A stretch of 60,273 bases of DNA, filler included, from Diploschistes diacapsis (Eukaryota): the NCBI GenBank assembly GCA_023645945.1. It is 8 parts of 8 records of this genome, joined end to end, with 100 filler letters (N's around TTAATTAATTAA, not from the genome) between each part and the next. Parts side by side here need not be neighbours in the genome. Positions count along the whole stretch, not along the records: positions 50,952 to 55,567 come from JALAIB010001677.1; 7 more parts are not named here. One strand, given 5' to 3'. Position 1 is the first letter of the stretch. Each line of letters opens with the position of its first letter. This document shows positions 21,243-60,273 of the stretch, in pieces. The position numbers were made by a program, and so were the translations under genes. Below the pieces are notes generated by a model. It saw only the letters and a program-made list of their open reading frames with translations. It had not been told where the DNA came from and ran no database searches.

Positions 21243-23357
21243 ATGGCCTGTGGTCAAGGGAAAGCTGATGCCAGGAAAAATGGGCGGCAGCGTTCGAGCG
21301 GTGGTAATATATGTCACAATTCCACTCGATTTCATGGCGACTCACCTTTGAACAGAAAAGCGCCCTCAAGGTATCATAAAGCATCGACCTCAATACCCCC
21401 TCCGAAAGAGCCTGGAAGCAATACAGTGTCTGGAGAAGCGAGCAGACCTCCAAGGCCGAACCATTCAACAGCATTCGTTACCCTCCCTATCAACAAGCAA
21501 TATTCGCAATTCGGTACGTCCTCTGTTCGGTTTAATGTTATTCTTGAAACCGAATCCTAAGGAAAGTGCCCACAGAACTTACCGACTTGCGAGAAGCCTT
21601 CAGACTCGGACCACAGACCCAGTCAAAAGCGAAAGCGATCACAAGAAATTGAAGATCTAGTCCCCCAACCTAAGGACCAGCGCATTGATCTAGTGCAAAA
21701 GAGCTTTACAAGGGAGAACGGAGATCAAGATCAGCTACCATCAACATCAACAATCAACTCACCCGAGCAATCATCTGGGAAGAAAAGGAGGAGAGTTGTT
21801 TCCACAAAACCGCGCTCAGCGGAAACTAATAATTGCTATCCGAAAAGGCGCAACAGTCCCATTTTTGAGAGGCCTGAAGAAGAACCCAAAGCCCCAGAAA
21901 ACGAAGAGAAAAGAAAATACAACCCTATCAGCTACTGGGCCGCGAACCATACCTGGCCCGACAACTTTGCAGAGTCCCATGCAATGTCTTCGAACAACAC
22001 CAGCAAACGACCGCGAACGTCGGATCATTATCAAAGCAGCAAGGATGAAAAACCCCGGAGCTATTCCCAGAGCCGTAAGGATGGAGATGTTCCGGAGCAA
22101 TATACTAAATCGTACGAAAAGTACATTTTCACGCAAGGTCTGGACATGAATTATATTAAAGGCAGAGAGTTAGTTTCTCCAGATAGCAAGGTGGCTTCCC
22201 AAGGACTTGGAAAAATGGAATGCACGGCCATCTCTCCTACTATATATTCCGAAGACAAAATACTGCAGGTGATCGACCTATGCCAGAATACAAATGAAGC
22301 AATGGTAAGCCGAGATATCACAACGCTGATTTTGCCGCCAATCAAAGCACTCCATCTAACGGACGACGCAAAACGTTTCAAAGATTTTACCGATCAAGTT
22401 AGGGCGCAGTGGCATGAGACCTGGGTTCTAGCAGGGCCCCGGCCTGAACCTGACCTGGCCGTTGGCTTCCTCTATTCCGCCTTTACGGAATCGGCAAATG
22501 AAAAACTAACTAACTACACATCTGTTGAAAACTTGACGCGACCAACCAACGAAATGTGTTTCCCGTTCCTGATGTGCGAGGTCAAGTGTGGCGACAAAGG
22601 ACTTGACTATGCTGACCGGCAGAACATGCACAGCTGCAGTGTGGCGGTCAAAGCGCTTCTCAAGCTCGAGCAAAAGGCGGATCAATACCGAGAGAAGGAC
22701 AAACAATTCGAAAGTTTGCTAGGCAAGATCCTAGTCTATTCCATCTCACACGATCAAAACGATGCTCGCGTCTGGGGATACTATGCCTTGGTTGAAGGAG
22801 GAAAATGGACATATTATCGATACCACATTGGCAAATTCGACATTGCACACAACGAGAGGTCCCTGCTGGCCCTTCACAACTTTGCCCGCAATGTTCTGAT
22901 CGTGCATGCTCCAAAGCTTTTAGAACGGCTTCAGAAAGCAATCGCAGCTCTCCCGGTCACATCCATGCTATCATTCTCCGCAAGTATTCTGAACTTGGAG
23001 GATGACTCACAGCAAGGCTCCCAACAACTCTCGCAGGGTCTAGATGCCGACGGTTTCGCGATTCCTAGTCTTCCTGCCAGCACCCAAAAATTGGTCGATG
23101 AGCAACAGCAGCAAATGGCCAAGATTTTACAACTACTAGAGCAGCAGAAGGATGAGCTAAAGAAAGAAAAGGATGAGCTAAAGAAAGAAAAGGATGAGCT
23201 AAAGAAAGAAAAGGATGAGCTTTCACAACTACTAGAGCAACAGAAGGATGAGCTAAAGAAAGAAAAGGATGAGCGAAAGAAGGATGAGGATAAATTAAAC
23301 GAACGAATCAACCGACTCATGAACATGATGGAATTGAGATTGCCACTGGCCTCCTAA
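21243..23357 (+). CDS. DUF7924-like protein with PD-(D/E)xK nuclease-like core and C-terminal coiled coil
   Basis: Exon 1 21243-21513 splices (intron 21514-21561) in frame to the long ORF. Motifs PISYWA, PEPDLAVG, FPFLMCEVKCG, ADRQNMHS, YSISHD, WGYY; heptad tail. Confidence 0.75.
23129..23290 (+). repeat. Coding tandem repeat: 21-bp unit GATGAGCTAAAGAAAGAAAAG (DELKKEK) plus a larger duplication
   Basis: Three consecutive near-perfect units, then a repeated CAACTACTAGAGCARCAGAAG block and another unit. Confidence 0.9.
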
Positions 23358-44859: not shown

Positions 44860-44965
44860 GCTGGTACTTGAAAGGGGATTTTGCCTTTCTTATTGTTTCT
44901 TTCTTTTCAGTAATTAGTTTTAACATGAATCTACCTATTAGAACTATCTTGCCATATTATCGTGA
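44860..44965 (+). repeat. LTR-like dispersed repeat, copy A (more heavily RIP-mutated)
   Basis: Aligns to 56132-56240 with mostly C-to-T and G-to-A differences. Confidence 0.65.
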
Positions 44966-45912: not shown

Positions 45913-46112
45913 TAGGCTGGCCGTCAGTGTCAATGTTTTAAATTTTTTTGCTACGGTGTCCGTGTCCGTAGATTCACGTAAATACAGTATCCGTATCAAT
46001 ATCCGTGTTTTAAATTTTTTAGTTACGATGTCCGTATCCGTGGATTCACGGGAATATAATGTCCGTATTAATGTCCATATTTTAAAAATTTTAATTATAA
46101 TATCTATATCCG
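45913..46112. mobile_element. Left end of a hAT-like TIR element with GTCCGT/ATCCGT repeats
   Basis: TAGGCTGGCC terminus and a duplicated ~75-80 bp subterminal block. Truncated by contig end. Confidence 0.55.
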
Positions 46113-47518: not shown

Positions 47519-49531
47519 ATGCATTTCACAACTCTCAGCGTTGCCGCTCTCGGCGCGCTCGCCCAAATATCCTCCGCCCTTCCACCCCCCGGCCACTCAA
47601 TCCATGAGAAGCGCGAGGTTACGAGCTCGAGATGGGTCAAGCGCGACAGACTTCCCTCAGATGCTCGCCTGCCAATCCGCATTGGCCTGTCTCAATCCAA
47701 CCTTGACCAGGCACATAAGTACCTCATGGATGTTTCAGACCCCAAATCCAAGAATTATGCCAAACACTGGACACAGGAGGAGGTGATTGCTAAGTTCGCT
47801 CCCTCCAAAGAGGCTGTCGAGGCCACAAGAGAATGGCTTGTGAAGTCTGGTATTTCCGGGCATCGCATTAGCCACTCTGATAACAGGGGCTGGCTGGCCT
47901 TTGATGCTACGACCAAAGAAATGGAGGACCTCTTGGACACTGAATTCCACGCATATGACCATGAAACTCAAGGCTCAACTGTGGGCTGCGACGAGTACTC
48001 GCTTCCCAACCACGTCAGAAGACATGTTGATTTTGTCTCTCCGGGTATCAAACTTGCGCCTTCCGGCGGATCGGCCAAGCGCAACGCAAAGCGCAACGAG
48101 AAGCGTGGTGTTCGTCAGAACCTCAGAAAAGACACTGGCCGCAAAGGTTCTGCCAGCTACTCAGTCTCGCCTATTCCGAACTCTAACACTACTGACTTAT
48201 CAACCTGTGATAAGATCATCACCCCTGAATGCATCCGCGCTCTTTACGACGTTCCTCCCGCAAATTTGAGCGATCCATCCAACTCTATGGGCATATTTGA
48301 GACTGGCGCTGCCTATGCACAGAAGGACATGGACCTATTCTATTCTCGCTACGCACCTCAAATCCCCAACGGAACGCACCCGAAGCACAACCTGATTGAT
48401 GGCGCCACTGCTCCAAGCGTCCCTAGGCAGGCTAGTGGTGAAGCCGATCTCGACTTCCAGCTCGCCTATTCCCTTATCTACCCTCAAGGCACCACACTCT
48501 TCCAAGCGGATGACCAGTATGTCACGAGCGCCTTTACGTACGGTAATGGCTTATTTAACACCTTCCTTGACGCCATTGATGGCACTTACTGCAACTACAC
48601 AGCCTTCAACATCACTGGCGACTCATCAGGCATTGACCCTACCTACCCTGACGAAAGACCCGGCGGTTACAATGGCACCTTGCAGTGTGGCGTCTTTCAA
48701 CCCACCAACGTCATATCCATTTCCTACGGTGTCCAAGAGCACGATCTGCCCGCCGCCTACCAGCGGCGCCAGTGTACCGAGTTCCTAAAGCTCGGTTTAC
48801 AAGGCGTGACTGTCGTGGTCGCATCTGGTGATGACGGCGTAGAGGGCCGTCTCGGAGATGAATCCAAGGGCGCAAACCGAGGCTGCTTAGGTCCAGAGCA
48901 CAAGGTCTATAATCCCACGTACCCTGCCACTTGCCCTTACCTCACCACCGTCGGCGCCACCATGGTCTTTCCCAACAAGACCGTCAATGACCCCGAGTCC
49001 GCCGCCTACGATGACGACCTAAGAAAGTGGTCGCAGCTCTTTTCCTCCGGAGGCGGCTTCTCCAACATCTACCCTATCCCAGATTACCAGGCGCCGGCCG
49101 TTGCCACATACCTCAACAACTGGAACCCGGGATACCCGACCTACGGCCTAAGCCAGTCCATGGGCGCAAACGGCGGCATCTACAACAATCAGGGCCGCGG
49201 CTTCCCCGACGTGGCCGCCGTGGGCAACAACATCGCGAGCTTTGTCGGCACCAACTTCTTCAACAACGGCGGCACGTCCGCGTCTGCGCCCATCTTCGCC
49301 AGCTTGATCAACTTGATCAACGAGGAGCGTATCGCGGCCGGCAAGAACCCCGTCGGCTTCGTCAACCCGACGCTGTACGCCAACCCGCAGGCCATGAACG
49401 ATATCACCAACGGTACCAACCCGGGCTGCAACACCACTGGCTTCGCCGCCGTGGAGGGATGGGACCCCGTGACGGGCCTGGGAACGCCGAATTATCCTAA
49501 GCTCTTAAGTGTTTTCATGGGTTTGAATTAA
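47519..49531 (+). CDS. Secreted sedolisin (peptidase S53, aorsin/tripeptidyl-peptidase-like), intronless
   Basis: Signal peptide, prodomain (VSDPKSKNYAKHWT), catalytic EADLD, oxyanion SGDDG, GGTSASAP, Ca-site GWDPVTGLGTP. Confidence 0.95.
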   Translation: MHFTTLSVAALGALAQISSALPPPGHSIHEKREVTSSRWVKRDRLPSDARLPIRIGLSQSNLDQAHKYLMDVSDPKSKNYAKHWTQEEVIAKFAPSKEAVEATREWLVKSGISGHRISHSDNRGWLAFDATTKEMEDLLDTEFHAYDHETQGSTVGCDEYSLPNHVRRHVDFVSPGIKLAPSGGSAKRNAKRNEKRGVRQNLRKDTGRKGSASYSVSPIPNSNTTDLSTCDKIITPECIRALYDVPPANLSDPSNSMGIFETGAAYAQKDMDLFYSRYAPQIPNGTHPKHNLIDGATAPSVPRQASGEADLDFQLAYSLIYPQGTTLFQADDQYVTSAFTYGNGLFNTFLDAIDGTYCNYTAFNITGDSSGIDPTYPDERPGGYNGTLQCGVFQPTNVISISYGVQEHDLPAAYQRRQCTEFLKLGLQGVTVVVASGDDGVEGRLGDESKGANRGCLGPEHKVYNPTYPATCPYLTTVGATMVFPNKTVNDPESAAYDDDLRKWSQLFSSGGGFSNIYPIPDYQAPAVATYLNNWNPGYPTYGLSQSMGANGGIYNNQGRGFPDVAAVGNNIASFVGTNFFNNGGTSASAPIFASLINLINEERIAAGKNPVGFVNPTLYANPQAMNDITNGTNPGCNTTGFAAVEGWDPVTGLGTPNYPKLLSVFMGLN

Positions 49532-52129
49532 AGCAGGGGCTGGGAACGATGGATGGGAATGGATAGTTCAAGAGTCATGAATTGCATAGCGGCATAGCGA
49601 CGGAGTTTACTTTTTGGGAGGGCGGGGGGTTTATCATAATATTTAATGCATAAGACTTTTTGACTTTACTTTTCACATGCATCCCTCGATTGCCATTATG
49701 ATGTTCATATTTTACCCAAGTAAACTTGCGGTCATGTCTGGGGTATTAAGAACCATCAGCATTCGCAGCCCAGGCAAGGGGACGCTTTTATACAGGGGCC
49801 TGGCTACAAGGCGCATCCATTTATTACCGATCCCTCTTTCGAGTAAGTATGTTCATTCTTTGGCTTAATCCAGGACCTGACCCTGCAGGCCGTGTAGTCA
49901 AAATTTTTCAGTTATTCGAATATAAAATTAATACGCTTTGTTTTAAAACACAGATTTTAAAGAATTTATGTGGTAGTCGCTGGGTAGCTTGGGGATTGCT
50001 GGTGGCAGGTGGTGCCGACCTTGCTGCAGCAGGCGATAGCTATGACGATGCCGCTTGGCATCTGCCGTATATAAGTAGATCTTGCCCCAGATTAGCTACA
50101 AATCTATACTCATTTCATACACTTGATTTAATAGGCTTTCTTTGCCAATTTATCTACTTTTTTATTTCTAGTGCTTCATTATTCTTTATTATAAAATTTT
50201 CTTTCTTTTTCTTTAAACGATTGGATAATAATTAGATATAAAATTAAAATACCTTGTCTATATTCTAGAATATTCGAAACATACTAGAAACTTATTAAGC
50301 AGTCAGACTAACCTATTGAGGTTAATACTCTGACAATTATCTTAATCATTTATTGCCTATCTAGTGATCCCACTTCCCATTTTCAACAGCCAGGTTTCGT
50401 TAGTGTCGCCGTTTTTGTTATTTTCGCTGGTATCGCCGGTTTTGTCTGTTTCGCCACGTTTCACCTTTTGGCGAAACCTAGCGAAACCCGCGAAACAGCT
50501 TGAAAAACTTTTCGTGATGGGGTAGTATAACTAGGGTATTAATATTTATGTAAGGGACACTGTGTCGTAATATTTGAAATGTTATTTAGGATTAATTCTT
50601 GAGTGTAGACTGCTGGGAGTTTTATAGCCAATATTGTGTATAAAAGTAAATAGGGTAACGAGCGCTAGCTCGATAATCAATCATTTCTTATCATAGGATA
50701 AAAATCTTAAGATTTTATTATATTGATTATTCCAGTGTGGTTTCACTACGGAGTTAAGCCCTAAGTCCGAAAAGACTTGGCGGAATACCTTTTATTTGTA
50801 AATCTGTAGCTAGACAATTTAAAGATACTATACAATCGAATCACATATGGTNNNNNNNNNNNNNNNNNNNNNNNNNNNNNNNNNNNNNNNNNNNNTTAAT
50901 TAATTAANNNNNNNNNNNNNNNNNNNNNNNNNNNNNNNNNNNNNNNNNNNNATATTAATTTAAATCGTACGTTTATATAACCGACGAATTTAACGTCGTA
51001 TTTTTTAATTAACTACCGATCTAAGTCAAGAAAATGTTCGCGTGACGCTGGTTCCTTGTCTTAAACTGACGAATAATAACGAGCGATTAAAATTTAGTAT
51101 CGACTTTTTATAATATCGTAACAAAAGAACGATAAAACAGATTAAATATAGAATCGCCGTTCTCGTATCTTGCAATTCTTTTAAAACACGCACGCCGTGT
51201 TTTAAAAAACCTGTTCCCCGTTTTTCCAATTATCTTCTCTTTCGATTCTAGTCCAGCCTATTAGTACATATATATGTCATCTTTCTTCTTTCCGGTGATC
51301 GTCAGAATATTTCCGTTAAAAAAATAGCCAAAAATACTACCTCGGACTTAAACGAATGACTTTTAAAAAAAACTATCCCGTAATTATATTTATCGTATCT
51401 TAAAGATATTAAAAAAGAAATTAAAATAAACTTATTTTTACTTTTTCCGACTAAAACTTTACCCGAGAAATTCTCTCCGACTTAATACAATCGTCTTTTT
51501 AGAATCTTCTTCCCACTTTTCATCACCGTTTATATTCGATAATTAAAAAGATCTCCGCTAACGATACTACTAATAGAATAAAAAAAGAAGTTCTCTAACC
51601 GTGCTAGACCCCTCAACTTATAAATTTTTAAAAAGCAACGTTCGATCTACTCGATACGTTAATATTCAGAAATCTTATCGCGATCCTTCCGTTCTAGTTC
51701 AAGAATCTTATACATCCGACAAAATCACTTCGAAATAATATAAAACGGCTTCCCGGAATCCGTATCGTAAATCCATCCCTTATTCGAAAAGTATTCCAGT
51801 CGAAAGAAGCAATAAACCATTTCACAAACTTAATTAAACGAAAAGATCGTTTATTCAAATCTTTTCTACGCTACGTCACTCCAGCCACAGACGCTGATTT
51901 TAATGAGCATTCTATTTCTCGCAGTTAGTACGCTCGGTACGCTCGTGACACGATCACAGTCAAGTTAATCAATATACTTCTTTATTAGTATTACTAATAG
52001 GAAGCTATTTTCATTTATAACTAATATCCTTATATCCGATAAAATAGATATCAAATTCACAAACAAAATCAAGAACTCTAAACGCTTCTATGTTTATAAC
52101 TTGAACAAAAACCATATCGAGAAACTACT

Positions 52130-54020
52130 CGAAATGAAAATAAATTAATCATCAAATTTAAATTATAAATCTAAAAAATAGCTCGCGCAATTCTAAAAAT
52201 ACATAAACGAACGTTACTTAACTATAACAACCAATAAACTTCCCGATATTATAAATATTTATCTAGACCTTCAGCTCGGGCAATTTCCTCTACATACCTT
52301 AATCGTTCTATCATCATCTCAATCTTTTTTTATTAATAAACACATCTACCGTAAGCTTACTAACGAAATTATAACCTAAGAAAGGTAATAGCCGCGTTCT
52401 TTTATTTTACGATAATAATTCGCATAAAATATGAGATAAAAATAAATTTCGAGCGTTTGCTTTCGCTGCCTCTTCTATACCGACAATAGAAATAAATTAC
52501 GAAACCTTTCAAGTTCTTGCATTATTACACCTTCGTTTAGTTCGATATCCTTTTTATTTCATTTCTTTTTTCAATAATTTCCGCTCTGTTCTCCATCGCG
52601 CGTTATAGTTAAGGGTAAATCCTAAAATCGCAATAATCGGCGAAAAAGATAAAAAAAAAGTATATTAAGTAAATACCTATTAGCCGATCTGTTTCTATAG
52701 TTAATACATCTCGCCGTTGTTAACTAGGACGGTATTAATTAACGAAAAAGTAATTATAAACAAAAGAAAAAAGAAGTATCTGTTTGGCAAGACCGAGCTA
52801 ATCTAATTCAATATAACCTTCTAGATTATCGACGACGCCATCTTCGTACATCCACGCAATAAAGTTCAGATACCCTTCATGATCTTAATATTCTGTTAAA
52901 TAAGAGCTAGAATAGGTACCTTCTTCCCTGATTCCAGCAATAAAGAATGTAGAGGACTTCGGTACAGGATATATCCTAAACTAATAATTATAAGAAAGGC
53001 GTTCACTTATTAATAATAAAATATCGAGATTACACTAAAGCGCAGACCCAGCGGTGGATAGAAAGCGATATATCGTCTTGATCAGCGCTAAGTGAAATAA
53101 CCGCGATCCAAAGAATACCACGTACGGAACGTCTATTAGCCAGCATGATATACCGCTATTTAATGATACGCAGTTCCTTCTCGTTATAGCCCTCGCAGAC
53201 AAAGCGCTGTTTGGAATCGATTCGGTGCAACAGCTGAACGATCAACAAATCCCCGAAAGCGATAACGAGTTTCTTCTTCGATAAAACGATTCGGTACTTT
53301 ATTCGCCTATTTTACAAAATATTACGATATAAAACGACGTGTTAGAAAAGCCTTTACCTAAAAAAAGCTTCGATCGTATTTTTAAAGCTGTCCTAGAACG
53401 TTCCGGATATTTTAAAAAAACGACTATCCATATTATACGACATTACCTTTAAAAAGAAGGTCAACGGTTAATACCTCGGACCCGATCGAACTCCCGACCG
53501 TCGCTAATTTACGAATAATATAGAAAAATATACCGAAATCGAACGATTATAACATATTACGCAAACCGATACTCGAATATACGGCTAAAATCGTGACTAA
53601 TACTTCTTCCGTAAATAAAAGATCCGCTTTCTTAAACGAGCCAGCTTAACACGATCACGTCGAATATTTCCAATCCCTTGCAAAGTTCCGAGAAAAGAGC
53701 CTTCCAACGAGCCTTCCCGTAGAGAAAAAGGCTGCGACCCGATAGGATCCTCGGTTAGTTATACTGAATCAAGACCGCAAAGAATAAAACGCTTTCTTAT
53801 TACGTTAGTCTTATTAAAAAACATTAGAACAATATTAATATAAATAGGTTCGAAAACGAAAGAACTAAAAATTTTTATTCGTAATAAGGAACGAGTCGAG
53901 GATAATATCAAAACGGATCTTTTTAAAACTTTATCTTATATATTCTTAAAGCGTGGTCGCCTCGCACGGATAATAATATCCGAAAAAACTATAACCGATA
54001 AAAAGCGAAAACAATATTAA
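52130..54020 (+). pseudogene. RIP-inactivated DUF3435 tyrosine recombinase (Starship captain); edges approximate
   Basis: Stop-ridden translation retains DDAIFVHPRNKVQIPF, RARIG, GLRYR, YRLDQR, NNRDP, FLL..ALADKALFG, TIHIIR, ERLQHITQTDTRIYG, AFLNEP, HDHVEYFQSLAKFRE..LP. Many TAA/TAG codons where Gln/Trp are expected. Confidence 0.8.
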
Positions 54021-54481
54021 TATTAAAATTATATATACGCGACGCACGGAAATGTTTATTTAATTATTACCGCGTTGCAGCTCTTCATTAAACAGAAATC
54101 ATTAACAGGCTTCTTTCTAGATCGGTATAAAATTGAATAATCTCAGTTTATCAAGACGTATAAATCATCCATATAATCTACCCAAACAGCAACGGAGCCC
54201 GCATATCTATTTTATAGAAATATTTTTTTATGATAAATACAGCTATCGGCGGGTAAAGAATTTCAAATCTCTTTTCACGAAGCCACGAACTTCAATAACA
54301 TAACCTCAAATATATGACCTATATAGTATATTTAAGGAAAAGAGTTTTCGATATTCTTTTAAGTTTTGCCCCTATACGGTATTAAGTTAAAAAAATATAT
54401 TAACGGTAGATTTAAACCTCCATTACATCCATAATTATTCTATATGAATTAAAGATTAGATTTATAACTTTTATATCTTGA

Positions 54482-55158
54482 TTAAAGTGCTCTAACACTC
54501 CGAGACGAATCGAGCATCTGATTCATAATACATTTTACTTCCTTCCAGGGTTTCTTTTCTTCAACAAGATCGATCAGTCGTTGAAGGTACTCTAGCTTAT
54601 AGCCTTCAATAGAACCATCATTCTCCACTTCCTCTCCAATCTCTCCAATATATTCTTTCGAAAAAATGTCCCGCTTCTTCAGGTTTTCCGGATGACTTTC
54701 CCTTCTATGTTTGCGCAGCATTTTATACGTTGTGTAAATCTTTCTACAGCTTAGACAACGTTTCAAACAATCATACCCTTCATCTATCAAATAACTTTTC
54801 CTGCAATCGACACAAACTTTAACTTCTAAAAGCCTGCTAATCTTCCGCTATACTGTTCTGTCCGTTCTTAAAAATATAAAGAAAGACTTACCTATTTTTA
54901 TCTCTATTATTACATTCTTTAATTCCGCAGTATCTTCCTGTGTCCAAATGCGCTTACCTTTCAAATACCTTTTATTGTCCTTCAGCCCAAAATGTTGACT
55001 CCGATAATAAAAATATCCATAATACTTAAAAATTTTTTTTAACAAACTATACAATATTCTTTACCTCCTCGTAATTCAATAGTACAATTACAGTTCATAT
55101 GGTTTTCAAGGCTATTTCGGCGATCAAACTTCATTTGACATTTGGGACATTCGTGCAT
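54482..55158 (-). pseudogene. AT-rich multi-zinc-finger gene, probably disrupted
   Basis: HECPKCQMKFDRRNSLENHMNC; YCIVC followed by TAA and a poly-A frameshift; gtaagt intron; VCVDCRK; canonical C2H2 finger CLSCRKIYTTYKMLRKHRRESH. Confidence 0.6.
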
Positions 55159-55667
55159 CTGCGGCCAAAAATGTGTTTCTTTATAATGTGTTTTTCTCGC
55201 TCTTTTGACTATATTTTTTCGACAAATATTGCAGTAATACTTATTATCGCGTCGCTCGATAACTGATTTTATAGGAAGTAGTGCAGAACTTATTTCATGA
55301 ATTAATGGATGGTTATTAGTTCTTTAAATAAGGTCTATTTCGTTGTAACCATGATTAACATAGGTTCCCGTCTTACTATGCTTCTCGTTCGTTCTTAGAA
55401 ATTAATAGGAAAAGTTCGAGGTCCTAGATGTTTATAAACGGTATCGCTTATTCGGTGATTCTATAATTAAATATTAACTACGTGGTATTAATATTATTCC
55501 ACGTTTATTTACCGGACGATCATCGATAATAAAATTATATTTATTATTATTATTATCGGTAGTAATANNNNNNNNNNNNNNNNNNNNNNNNNNNNNNNNN
55601 NNNNNNNNNNNTTAATTAATTAANNNNNNNNNNNNNNNNNNNNNNNNNNNNNNNNNNNNNNNNNNNN

Positions 55668-56366
55668 GATTTATAATATAAATTAAAGAAATAAGGATTA
55701 AAGATAAAGAAATAAGATATAAAAATATCACGAATAAGATAAAGATATCATAATAAAATTAATATTTAAATAAAGATATTATTAATTTAATAAATATTTA
55801 ATTTATAAATAATTAATATCGATATTAAAGTTCATTTATATTATAATTAATTATTAACGAATTTTAGAATATATATATAAAAACGAGAATAAGATATCAA
55901 TACGTAATTTACGCGAAAGACGCGGATTTAACGTATTAATTAAATTCGACTTATATAAAAAATCGAGATAGTAACGATATAAATCGAGTTAACTATCTAG
56001 CCTATTTTAGTAGGTAAAGAAAGGATTATAAAGATAATTCTAAAGAATCAGAATAAGAAAAAAAACGATTATAAAGCTAAACGAGGAATATATTAAGAAT
56101 CGGACAAGCGACGTTCAAGATCTTAGCTTGCGGGTACTTAAAGGGGGATTTTGCCCTTCTTATTCTCTCCTCTTCTTTAGTAATAAGTCCTAGCATGAAT
56201 CTGCCCTGCGTATAGCCATCTTGCCACATTATCGGATTCCACCCTTTACCGAAGAAAATAAGAAACTTTTTTAAAAAATTCCTCTTATGTGGGTCTGCGG
56301 CCTTGGCGCGGTACTAGGGCTGAGATCCCCTGTTTGTCCGGAGGACTGCCACAGGTATCTGTTACA
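55668..56366 (+). mobile_element. Heavily RIP-mutated relic ending in an LTR-like repeat (copy B)
   Basis: Extremely AT-rich block, then a repeat shared with 44860-44965, terminating in TGTTACA. Confidence 0.5.
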
Positions 56367-59262: not shown

Positions 59263-60273
59263 ACGTGTTGCCCCTAGTACCCGAACGGACCCTAGTAACC
59301 GAACATCCATAAGCGCTTTTACACCCAAAATACCTTTCTCTTTCTCATCCATTATAAGTTCCATATATATTTTTTTTGCTAATTTAAACCTAAATATAAT
59401 CGATAATAGAAAATGCTTTTATCGAGACGAAAACTCGATCTTCTTTATTATCGTTTTATTAAATCGTTTAGCGTAACGGCGTCATCCTTTCTGTTACGAT
59501 CCAAGTAGCTAAGTGGTAGCCTACTTGGCACGTCCCAGCCATTCTTTGTAACGTGTTTCACGGTCAGCTCGGCCACCCCCAAAGCTCGGCCACTTCACAT
59601 TGCGATATTCATTATTCTTTCGGTTTTTCTCGATAATGGCCGTTTCGCATCGAAATAACTCGATATTATTAAAATCGGATATTAACGATTATTTATAGGT
59701 TTTAAATTTTTAATAATATATCAACATTCGAACGACCGTTCGCGTATTTAAAGTTTCTCGATCGATCGTTATAGATCGATTTAATAAAAAATAATTTAAT
59801 TTTAATGGCTACGAATTGATTTAAATCCTTTTAAATTTAAAAGAAAAAATATTAATACGATAGATTATACGTTTTATATAAATTAACTTTTTTGTATCGT
59901 TTACGTTAATAAATAAAAATAACCGAAGAAATTCGACGCGAAAGAATTCGATTTAGTTCAAATTTAGAAATCAGTATCGCGAATTTTTAATCTATCGACA
60001 AGAATTAGGTAACGCGATTTTATAAACAATTTCCTAAAATTACTAATAACGTGTTTCACGGTCAGCTCGGCCACTCCCAAAGTCGGCCACTTCACATTGG
60101 GATATTCATTATTCTTTCGGTTTTTCTCGATAATGGCCGCTTCGCATCGAAATAACTCGATATTATTAAAATAGGACATTAATGATTATTTATAAGTTCT
60201 AAATTTTTAATAATATATTAATATTCGAGCGACCGTTCGCGCATTTAACATTTCTCGATCGACCGTTATGGAT
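59263..60273 (+). mobile_element. Stack of Fot1/pogo-like left ends (59263, 59551, 60049) plus LTR fragment (59492-59547)
   Basis: Each starts TA-ACGTGTT with paired internal direct repeats. The 59551 and 60049 copies are near-identical over more than 200 bp and lead into RIP-mutated transposase-like sequence. Confidence 0.75.

Follow-up and report, generated by a model that had tools for sequence, protein, structure and literature searches.

Starship captains and other described systems

The closest described systems are the captains of Starships, among them HhpA of Hephaestus and Kirc of Enterprise. The locus reported here resembles them in being homologous to proteins that pass the DUF3435 profile (PF11917) and in having relatives that stand first in line before DUF3723, NLR or FRE genes. 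It differs from them in being dead, with 14 stops, three frameshifts, the codon of its tyrosine lost and both ends gone. Cryptons are small eukaryotic transposons encoding a tyrosine recombinase. In a comparison made by description only, they are set apart from our locus by its homologs, which are DUF3435 proteins in Starship-like settings. The family of the relic shares the Arg, HxxR and G-x-x-Y layout of HhpA and also its His/Tyr-to-Tyr spacing: the available text of PMC10104507 gives Y381 and Y416 for HhpA, the same 35-residue distance as from His to Tyr in the relic's family.

The available portions of PMC13486527 and PMC10104507 describe Starships degraded by RIP as well as large regions of lichen fungi affected by it. 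A presumed degraded Tangerine copy in Xanthoria calcicola is like our locus in its lichen-associated Pezizomycotina host, its AT-rich RIP and its surviving gene fossils (accessible sections of PMC13486527). Most Tangerine-family captains lack the core-binding domain, whereas the relatives of our relic retain some 130 aa of N-terminal sequence. According to the accessible part of PMC12256816, 23% of its non-redundant Starship-like regions have MYB/SANT genes, a part of them with C2H2 fingers, on the far edge from the captain and oriented against it.

The locus analyzed here is very probably a non-functional fossil of a Starship-captain-type (DUF3435) gene, carried on a small piece of repeat DNA, affected by RIP, from a Pezizomycotina fungus of a lichen. 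It is an ordinary RIP fossil of a known kind, having met a fate that is ordinary for captain genes.

The analyzed window and the relic contig

The window, meaning the whole 60,273-base stretch of DNA that was analyzed, consists of unlinked pieces chained by seven identical linkers. One piece of 27 kb is followed by pieces of 4652, 4649, 4648, 4644, 4639 and 4616 bp and by one that is cut. They derive from a fragmented assembly, each being a contig on its own; the protein encoded by the piece next to the relic contig is recorded with a longest contig of 4639 bp, the very length of that piece. The linkers and the contig that bears the relic are placed as follows.

27120, 31872, 36621, 41369, 46113, 50852 and 55568, no strand: starts of the seven linkers, each composed of 44 N, TTAATTAATTAA, 44 N
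50852..50951, no strand: artificial linker closing the preceding contig (one of seven in the window, the later ones about 4.7 kb apart)
50952..55567, no strand: AT-rich 4616-bp contig bearing the captain relic (GC 0.33, composite RIP index +0.34)
55568..55667, no strand: artificial linker opening the next contig

Because the window is a concatenation of unlinked contigs, neighborhoods across the linkers are not readable as synteny. An S53 peptidase gene on the left and an SH3 protein gene on the right both lie across linkers and are unlinked to the relic contig, which ends 1.5 kb beyond the captain relic.

A public run with the label lichen metagenome contains a fraction of 0.80 of the relic contig's sampled words. 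Among named homologs of the contig's genes, the closest are from fungi that form lichens, namely Lecanora helva, Diploschistes diacapsis and cf. Caloplaca. No RNA run was listed as containing the relic stretch. The other AT-rich stretches of the window contain no recognizable element genes, their sole match being an ordinary Thg1 gene. When the contig was shuffled, an ORF of 121 aa was reached in 26 of 500 trials, so ORF length alone is no proof that its minus-strand ORFs code.

Identification of a DUF3435-type tyrosine recombinase

An initial, sequence-only reading had proposed that positions 52130 to 54020 hold the fossil of a captain gene in which no ORF is called. The lack of an ORF is confirmed, as 50236-54481 contains no stop-to-stop frame of at least 80 aa. 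Read across stops and frame changes, the plus strand of 52642-54020 encodes a DUF3435-type tyrosine recombinase. The proposed span needs correction at both ends: the DUF3435 homology covers 52642-54020 and continues in an inverted tail to 54178, whereas 52339-52638 belongs to DUF7587 (Pfam E=1.7e-10).

For phmmer, a single frame of the relic (52102-54000), its stops replaced by X, was compared with 1.84 billion representative proteins. The search returned 142 matches at E<=1e-3, including 38 at E<=1e-10, with a best value of E=1.1e-30. Eighteen of the 142 matches were scanned with Pfam; 13 pass DUF3435 (PF11917) and one falls just under the cut-off (25.6 bits), while the remaining four comprise two with DUF7587 only and two without any family. 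The closest named homolog, P0004 of Lecanora helva (577 aa), matches the window at E=2.5e-42 in tblastn. Every significant tblastn match of the homologs in the window lies within 52339-54178, and none lies elsewhere. Together, phmmer, the Pfam scan of its matches and tblastn back the earlier assignment to a dead tyrosine recombinase gene of the DUF3435/captain family. A profile built from 14 homologs also matches the relic contig alone among the 48 frame translations of the window's eight pieces, a result that is circular because the members were found with the relic query.

When the Pfam DUF3435 profile (cut-off 25.8 bits) is matched directly, the highest-scoring single-frame piece reaches 14.4 bits (E=0.018) over profile positions 82-201 of 418, and a scan of whole frames yields no DUF3435 match. 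A score below the cut-off is expected, because the relic is split over three frames and full of stops. A word-indexed protein search with the central relic frame found nothing. Throughout, broken frames were followed by reference, each stop being written as X.

Anatomy of the relic

Alignment with the homologs resolves the collinear part of the gene into the following features.

52642..54020, plus strand: DUF3435 relic, collinear portion, which corresponds to P0004 residues ~124-538 and has 14 in-frame stops outside introns and 3 true frameshifts
52666..52725, plus strand: intron remnant with splice sites no longer clean, at the relatives' intron site between P0004 residues 131 and 133
52906..52917, plus strand: A-R-I-G, the first conserved Arg of the recombinase signature, kept (alignment with homologs)
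52969..53019, plus strand: 51-nt intron at a position conserved in relatives, which read through 17 in-frame codons there
53095..53098, plus strand: frameshift, 2 nt gone from an A run (alignment with P0004)
53423..53440, plus strand: T-I-H-I-I-R, the HxxR box, His and Arg kept (alignment with homologs)
53460..53523, plus strand: clean 64-nt GT..AG intron at a conserved position, explaining one apparent frame change
53586..53592, plus strand: stop, altered codon and 2-nt deletion hitting the invariant Tyr of G-x-x-Y (alignment with homologs)
53794..53855, plus strand: further frameshift, from frame 1 to frame 3 (tblastn and profile maps)

The 14 in-frame stops outside introns are spread over about 405 codons. 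Two catalytic positions are preserved: the Arg of A-R-I-G and the HxxR box are in register with invariant columns of the 14 homologs. The TIHIIR segment, which had been singled out earlier as catalytic, indeed aligns with the HxxR box of the family (T-V-H-S-I-R-R in P0004). A second motif that had been read nearby stands except for its first residue. Positions 53550-53585 read as a stop followed by HITQTDTRIYG, the leading Q, present in 28 of 28 homologs, now being a TAA stop.

The predicted nucleophile is the Tyr located 35 residues past the His of the HxxR box, and its codon has been cut to one base by the 2-nt deletion. The loss of this codon means that the gene is dead; it is no evidence against descent from the DUF3435 family. 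The three introns at intron positions of the relatives mark the relic as a genomic copy and not a processed one. In the 51-nt intron, both splice dinucleotides now look like products of G>A changes. A mitochondrial reading of TGA as Trp was rejected: where a stop is aligned with Trp, it is TAG or TAA.

Genomic setting of the intact relatives

A scan of metagenome contigs recovered 47 loci encoding relatives of the relic. These are mostly intact, with a GC content of about 0.5 and RIP-like indices in six of the 47. Their nucleotide similarity to the window amounts to 65-78% and is confined to 52757-53750. In the nucleotide comparison with the 47 loci, no similarity was found upstream of the relic, and DUF7587 or zinc-finger homologs are absent from the vicinity of all 47.

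For nine long loci, 115 ORFs of at least 140 aa were listed and 68 were scanned, after those overlapped by a longer ORF and the exons of the captain itself had been set aside; at L018, no ORF was this long. Upstream genes are ordinary at the four loci where they could be identified (L023, L029, L040 and L026), the sets being TPR, acyltransferase and PhyH; SAPS, Snf7 and Nramp; GPHR and SDR; and MFS. A copia retroelement lies upstream in L037. Within 10 kb downstream, by comparison, we found DUF3723 (L023, L004), HeLo with NB-ARC (L037) and FRE-type FAD_binding_8 (L026). A Starship auxiliary family is thus present in four of the nine long loci, on the downstream side every time, which indicates that the family of the relic behaves like Starship captains, although the relic itself displays no such setting. 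The premise of the earlier reading, that captains usually come first in their elements, agrees with these intact relatives: they sit captain-like, with ordinary genes upstream and DUF3723, NLR or FRE downstream.

These settings bear on the idea that the relic stems from a small Crypton-like transposon, or from a solo tyrR gene, that never headed a cargo element. The small size of the contig would suit this idea, and Starship-less tyrR genes do occur, as illustrated by a tyrR-only 17.9-kb candidate judged a false positive in the available part of PMC13486527. However, the closest full-length homologs pass DUF3435 and several homologs adjoin DUF3723, NLR or FRE genes, downstream only, making such an origin highly improbable.

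Both ends of the gene

On the left, residues 1 to ~123 of the homologs have no counterpart on the relic contig, even at E<=10. The captain relic is instead joined, in the same frame and at about 52640, to a fragment of another gene.

52339..52638, plus strand: dead DUF7587 fragment with 3 in-frame stops, corresponding to residues 216-313 of the 721-aa P0003 (62% identity)

This fragment matches Pfam PF24494 over profile positions 9-89 of 146 (E=1.7e-10) and reaches E=8e-31 in tblastn. A literature search found no mention of DUF7587. The left boundary of a Starship had been expected, with some probability, within about 1 kb upstream of the gene. With the N-terminal codons absent and the DUF7587 fragment fused to what remains, such a boundary cannot be placed, and this part of the earlier reading is not supported. 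A Starship captain would read inwards as first gene, no more than about 1.5 kb from the 5' boundary, a layout that the relic does not show.

On the right, the collinear part is followed by a short segment in the opposite orientation.

54021..54172, minus strand: 152-bp segment, inverted relative to the gene, with the C-terminal motif (P0004 residues 542-571)

The C-terminal motif is matched at 54178-54071 by more than 15 homologs, on the minus strand only, with a profile E=5e-6. Flipping 54021-54172 in silico brings it in frame and collinear with the rest of the gene. The inversion is flanked by a 7-nt inverted repeat only. The relatives encode a further Cys/His-rich C-terminal exon of about 420 aa, for which the window holds no significant match.

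The state of both ends weighs on the proposal that the contig represents, in intact form, the 5' end of a large Starship killed by RIP, with its left boundary within about 1 kb and its cargo past the contig end. The gene does belong to the captain family, and in L023 and L029 the nearest ordinary upstream gene ends 0.6-0.9 kb before the captain start. Nevertheless, about 123 codons are missing, the DUF7587 junction at about 52640 is seen by two assemblers, and the C-terminal exon is missing as well. The contig is only 4616 bp long, the genes further right in the window and its other neighbors are on other contigs, and the six frames of the contig contain no cargo or auxiliary gene (DUF3723, PLP, NLR, FRE). 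An intact 5' end is therefore very unlikely. The relic has no present function, and a 4.6-kb contig cannot show element ends or cargo.

A sister variant and the depth of coverage

A sister variant of the relic was found as a 925-nt Logan contig in the lichen metagenome run X1. Its tail is flipped with respect to the window and hence collinear with the gene. Of its 32 differences from the window, 27 are listed, with transitions making up 26. Instead of a paralog, it may represent one allele of a mixed population. Bearing on the earlier suggestion of a multi-copy element with sister copies, at least one diverged, transition-dominated version is present in a lichen metagenome, although it may be allelic, and the window itself contains none.

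Among the Logan contigs of run X1, the window's own, inverted version of 53636-54561 is absent and only the non-inverted form occurs. Parts of 52101-52446 are without cover in this run, and runs X2 and X3 yielded no contigs along the stretch. A loose end at 53819 resembles a sequencing adapter. The depths of the Logan contigs along the stretch are 26.4, 13.6, 39.7, 41.4, 25.4, 81.1 and 18.9, values that are not copy numbers and have no single-copy baseline. The steps between them look like multiples of about 13.6 (13.6 + 25.4 ~ 39.7), which hints at three copies or two haplotypes.

The mosaic structure, namely the DUF7587 join and the 152-bp inversion, was also considered as a possible misassembly of AT-rich repeats. 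In favor of this, the assembly was made from a metagenome and is fragmented, the X1 contigs carry only the non-inverted form over 53636-54561, and Logan contigs break at several points along the stretch. In contrast, the DUF7587/captain join is spanned without differences by an independent Logan contig (52447-52856), the 7-nt flanking inverted repeat is too short to mislead a de Bruijn assembler, and the truncation of the gene is independent of the inversion. We consider an artefact unlikely on balance.

RIP-like damage

The earlier reading attributed the death of the gene to RIP, and the direction of the substitutions agrees. We compared the relic with its homologs over 141 alignment columns, each with 8 or more homologs and an agreement of no less than 70% among them. 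The consensus residue is kept in 103 columns and differs in 38, four of which were dropped as frame-overlap artefacts. For the 34 changed columns that are left, C>T/G>A alone explains 27, reverse transitions explain none, and any other class explains at most four. The well-aligned stops fall at W, Q or R of the homologs.

The dinucleotide indices are shifted too. The relic has a GC content of 0.36, a TpA/ApT of 1.12 and a (CpA+TpG)/(ApC+GpT) of 0.55, compared with 0.49, 0.74 and 1.27, respectively, in the gene-rich DNA of the window's first 20 kb.

The transitions of the sister variant are distributed over CpT (10), CpA (9), CpC (5) and CpG (2), and only 12 of 32 inferred mutated positions in the relic are in a TpA context. 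Given this spread over four contexts, the preference is not the classic CpA-only one. As for duplicated copies that could serve as RIP substrate, no second copy of the relic was found within the window.

A Myb/SANT-C2H2 gene facing the relic

About 0.3 kb past the captain tail lies a second degraded gene, in the opposite sense, so that the two genes face each other.

54461..55191, minus strand: degraded Myb/SANT and C2H2 zinc-finger gene, convergent with the captain (homology to P0272, 241 aa)

Open stretches of this gene span 54482-54847 and 55039-55323. Aligned with P0272, it is broken by one internal stop and a single frame change and carries two short deletions. The similarity to P0272 reaches E=4.6e-35 against the whole database and E=5.7e-49 and 2.4e-5 in tblastn, and P0272 itself passes Pfam Myb_DNA-binding and zf-C2H2_6. 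The stretch 54482-55323 is AT-rich without RIP indices. Atlas look-ups with the zinc-finger ORF and with P0272 gave only generic C2H2 or HTH leads, all scoring below 0.9.

In the Myb/SANT plus C2H2 architecture of its homolog P0272 and in its own sense opposite to the captain, the neighbor is like the Starship-edge MYB/SANT genes covered in the accessible part of PMC12256816; unlike those, it lies 0.3 kb from the captain and not at the far end. Captain-like relatives combined with an opposite-sense Myb/SANT-C2H2 gene at 0.3 kb favor a Starship origin of the relic. A facing Myb/SANT gene at such a distance also fits a collapsed or rearranged remnant better than an intact 5' end.

More specifically, both genes could be the edge genes of one and the same Starship, in which an internal deletion took the 3' exon of the captain together with the cargo and a second deletion took the left end. 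Apart from the orientation and architecture of the neighbor, this scenario draws on the published far-edge position of opposite-sense MYB/SANT genes in 23% of regions (PMC12256816, available part) and on the relic ending exactly ahead of the ~420-aa C-terminal exon of its relatives. Homologs of P0272 occur within 10 kb of the relatives at 0 of 47 loci, as expected if the gene normally lies far off. Conversely, chance alone gives a convergent orientation in half of all cases. BLASTP detects no similarity between P0272 and the Myb-bearing captain P0141, and the atlas is uninformative. The Myb stretch may moreover be an unrelated repeat, as it has other RIP indices and the highest contig depth (81 versus about 40). 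Overall, a collapse of one element into these two edge genes is unlikely.

The depth steps stand at roughly 1x, 2x, 3x and 6x of 13.6, and the tail occurs in two orientations. A quite unlikely variant is that of a collapsed "mini-Starship", with the captain and the Myb/SANT-C2H2 gene facing each other, no cargo, and several near-identical copies existing before or after RIP. If this were true, Starship edges could last on their own in lichen fungi as a small element and perhaps increase in number.

Origin and significance of the fossil

Returning to the reading of the relic as a dead captain-type gene, its history may be pictured as follows. The gene would once have been part of a Starship present in more than one copy and would have been inactivated by RIP during sexual cycles. 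Deletions and rearrangements may then have joined it to the dead DUF7587 fragment on its left and brought the Myb/SANT-C2H2 gene close on its right.

The significance of the locus is modest; it is a further instance of Starship decay in fungi associated with lichens. Captain-type recombinase fossils are recoverable from RIP-mutated scraps where ORF callers and Pfam cut-offs fail, and such ORF- and Pfam-blind scraps of short-read lichen metagenome assemblies can yield them. For this fungus, the features of note are the pairing of the captain with a Myb/SANT gene and a tail that occurs in two orientations.

Composition of the window

The window consists of a 27-kb piece followed by contigs in order of falling length, from 4,652 to 4,616 bp. 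Each join between window contigs is built of 44 N, TTAATTAATTAA and another 44 N, and synteny is not readable from gene order across these linkers.

Linkers at the contig joins
27120-27219
31872-31971
36621-36720
41369-41468
46113-46212
50852-50951
55568-55667

Within a gene of the 27-kb piece, positions 23097-23288 hold a 21-nt-based tandem coding repeat of Asp-Glu-Leu-Lys-Lys-Glu-Lys units. AT-rich parts of other contigs carry further short repeat families (79 to 91% identical), for which no Pfam family was found. The best named relatives of an intact S53 gene share 55 to 57% identity with it, and Agyrium and Xylographa, both lichen-forming genera, are represented among them; identity to unnamed metagenome proteins reaches 75%.

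Repeats and S53 gene
59579-59776 and 60076-60273, short repeat
44860-44935 and 56130-56205, short repeat
45924-46067, short repeat
47519-49528, +, intact S53 (sedolisin/tripeptidyl-peptidase) gene

Surroundings of the captain relic

The dead DUF3435-type tyrosine recombinase gene (captain relic) is truncated and joined in frame to a DUF7587 fragment, a family of which the literature searched held no mention. Two orientations exist for the 152-bp segment at 54021-54172: the window has it inverted, and a sister contig from lichen metagenome run X1 has it collinear. Of the 27 listed differences between that contig and the window, 26 are transitions. Convergent with the relic lies a degraded Myb/SANT and C2H2 zinc-finger gene. 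This stretch is AT-rich, yet lacks repeat-induced point mutation (RIP) indices, and has the top contig depth in lichen metagenome run X1.

Neighbors of the relic
52339-52638, +, dead internal DUF7587 gene fragment, 62% identity to a Diploschistes protein
54461-55323, -, degraded Myb/SANT and C2H2 zinc-finger gene, homologous to the 241-aa protein P0272 (E=4.6e-35)

Relatives in metagenome loci

In metagenome relatives of the captain, a conserved Cys/His-rich ORF of ~420 aa immediately follows the 577-aa model. Annotated captain-family proteins such as P0004, the closest named homolog (Lecanora helva), are therefore probably truncated, and full captains of this type are probably ~1,000 aa long, as P0124 and P0060 are.

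Cys/His-rich ORF (~420 aa; also present at further loci)
L016, 11519-12781
L023, 11481-12779
L004, 2912-4180
L002, 2618-3883

RIP-like indices and many stops mark six of the 47 related loci (L017/L018, L025, L039, L040, and L046). Decayed copies from the captain clade of the relic occur repeatedly in lichen metagenomes.
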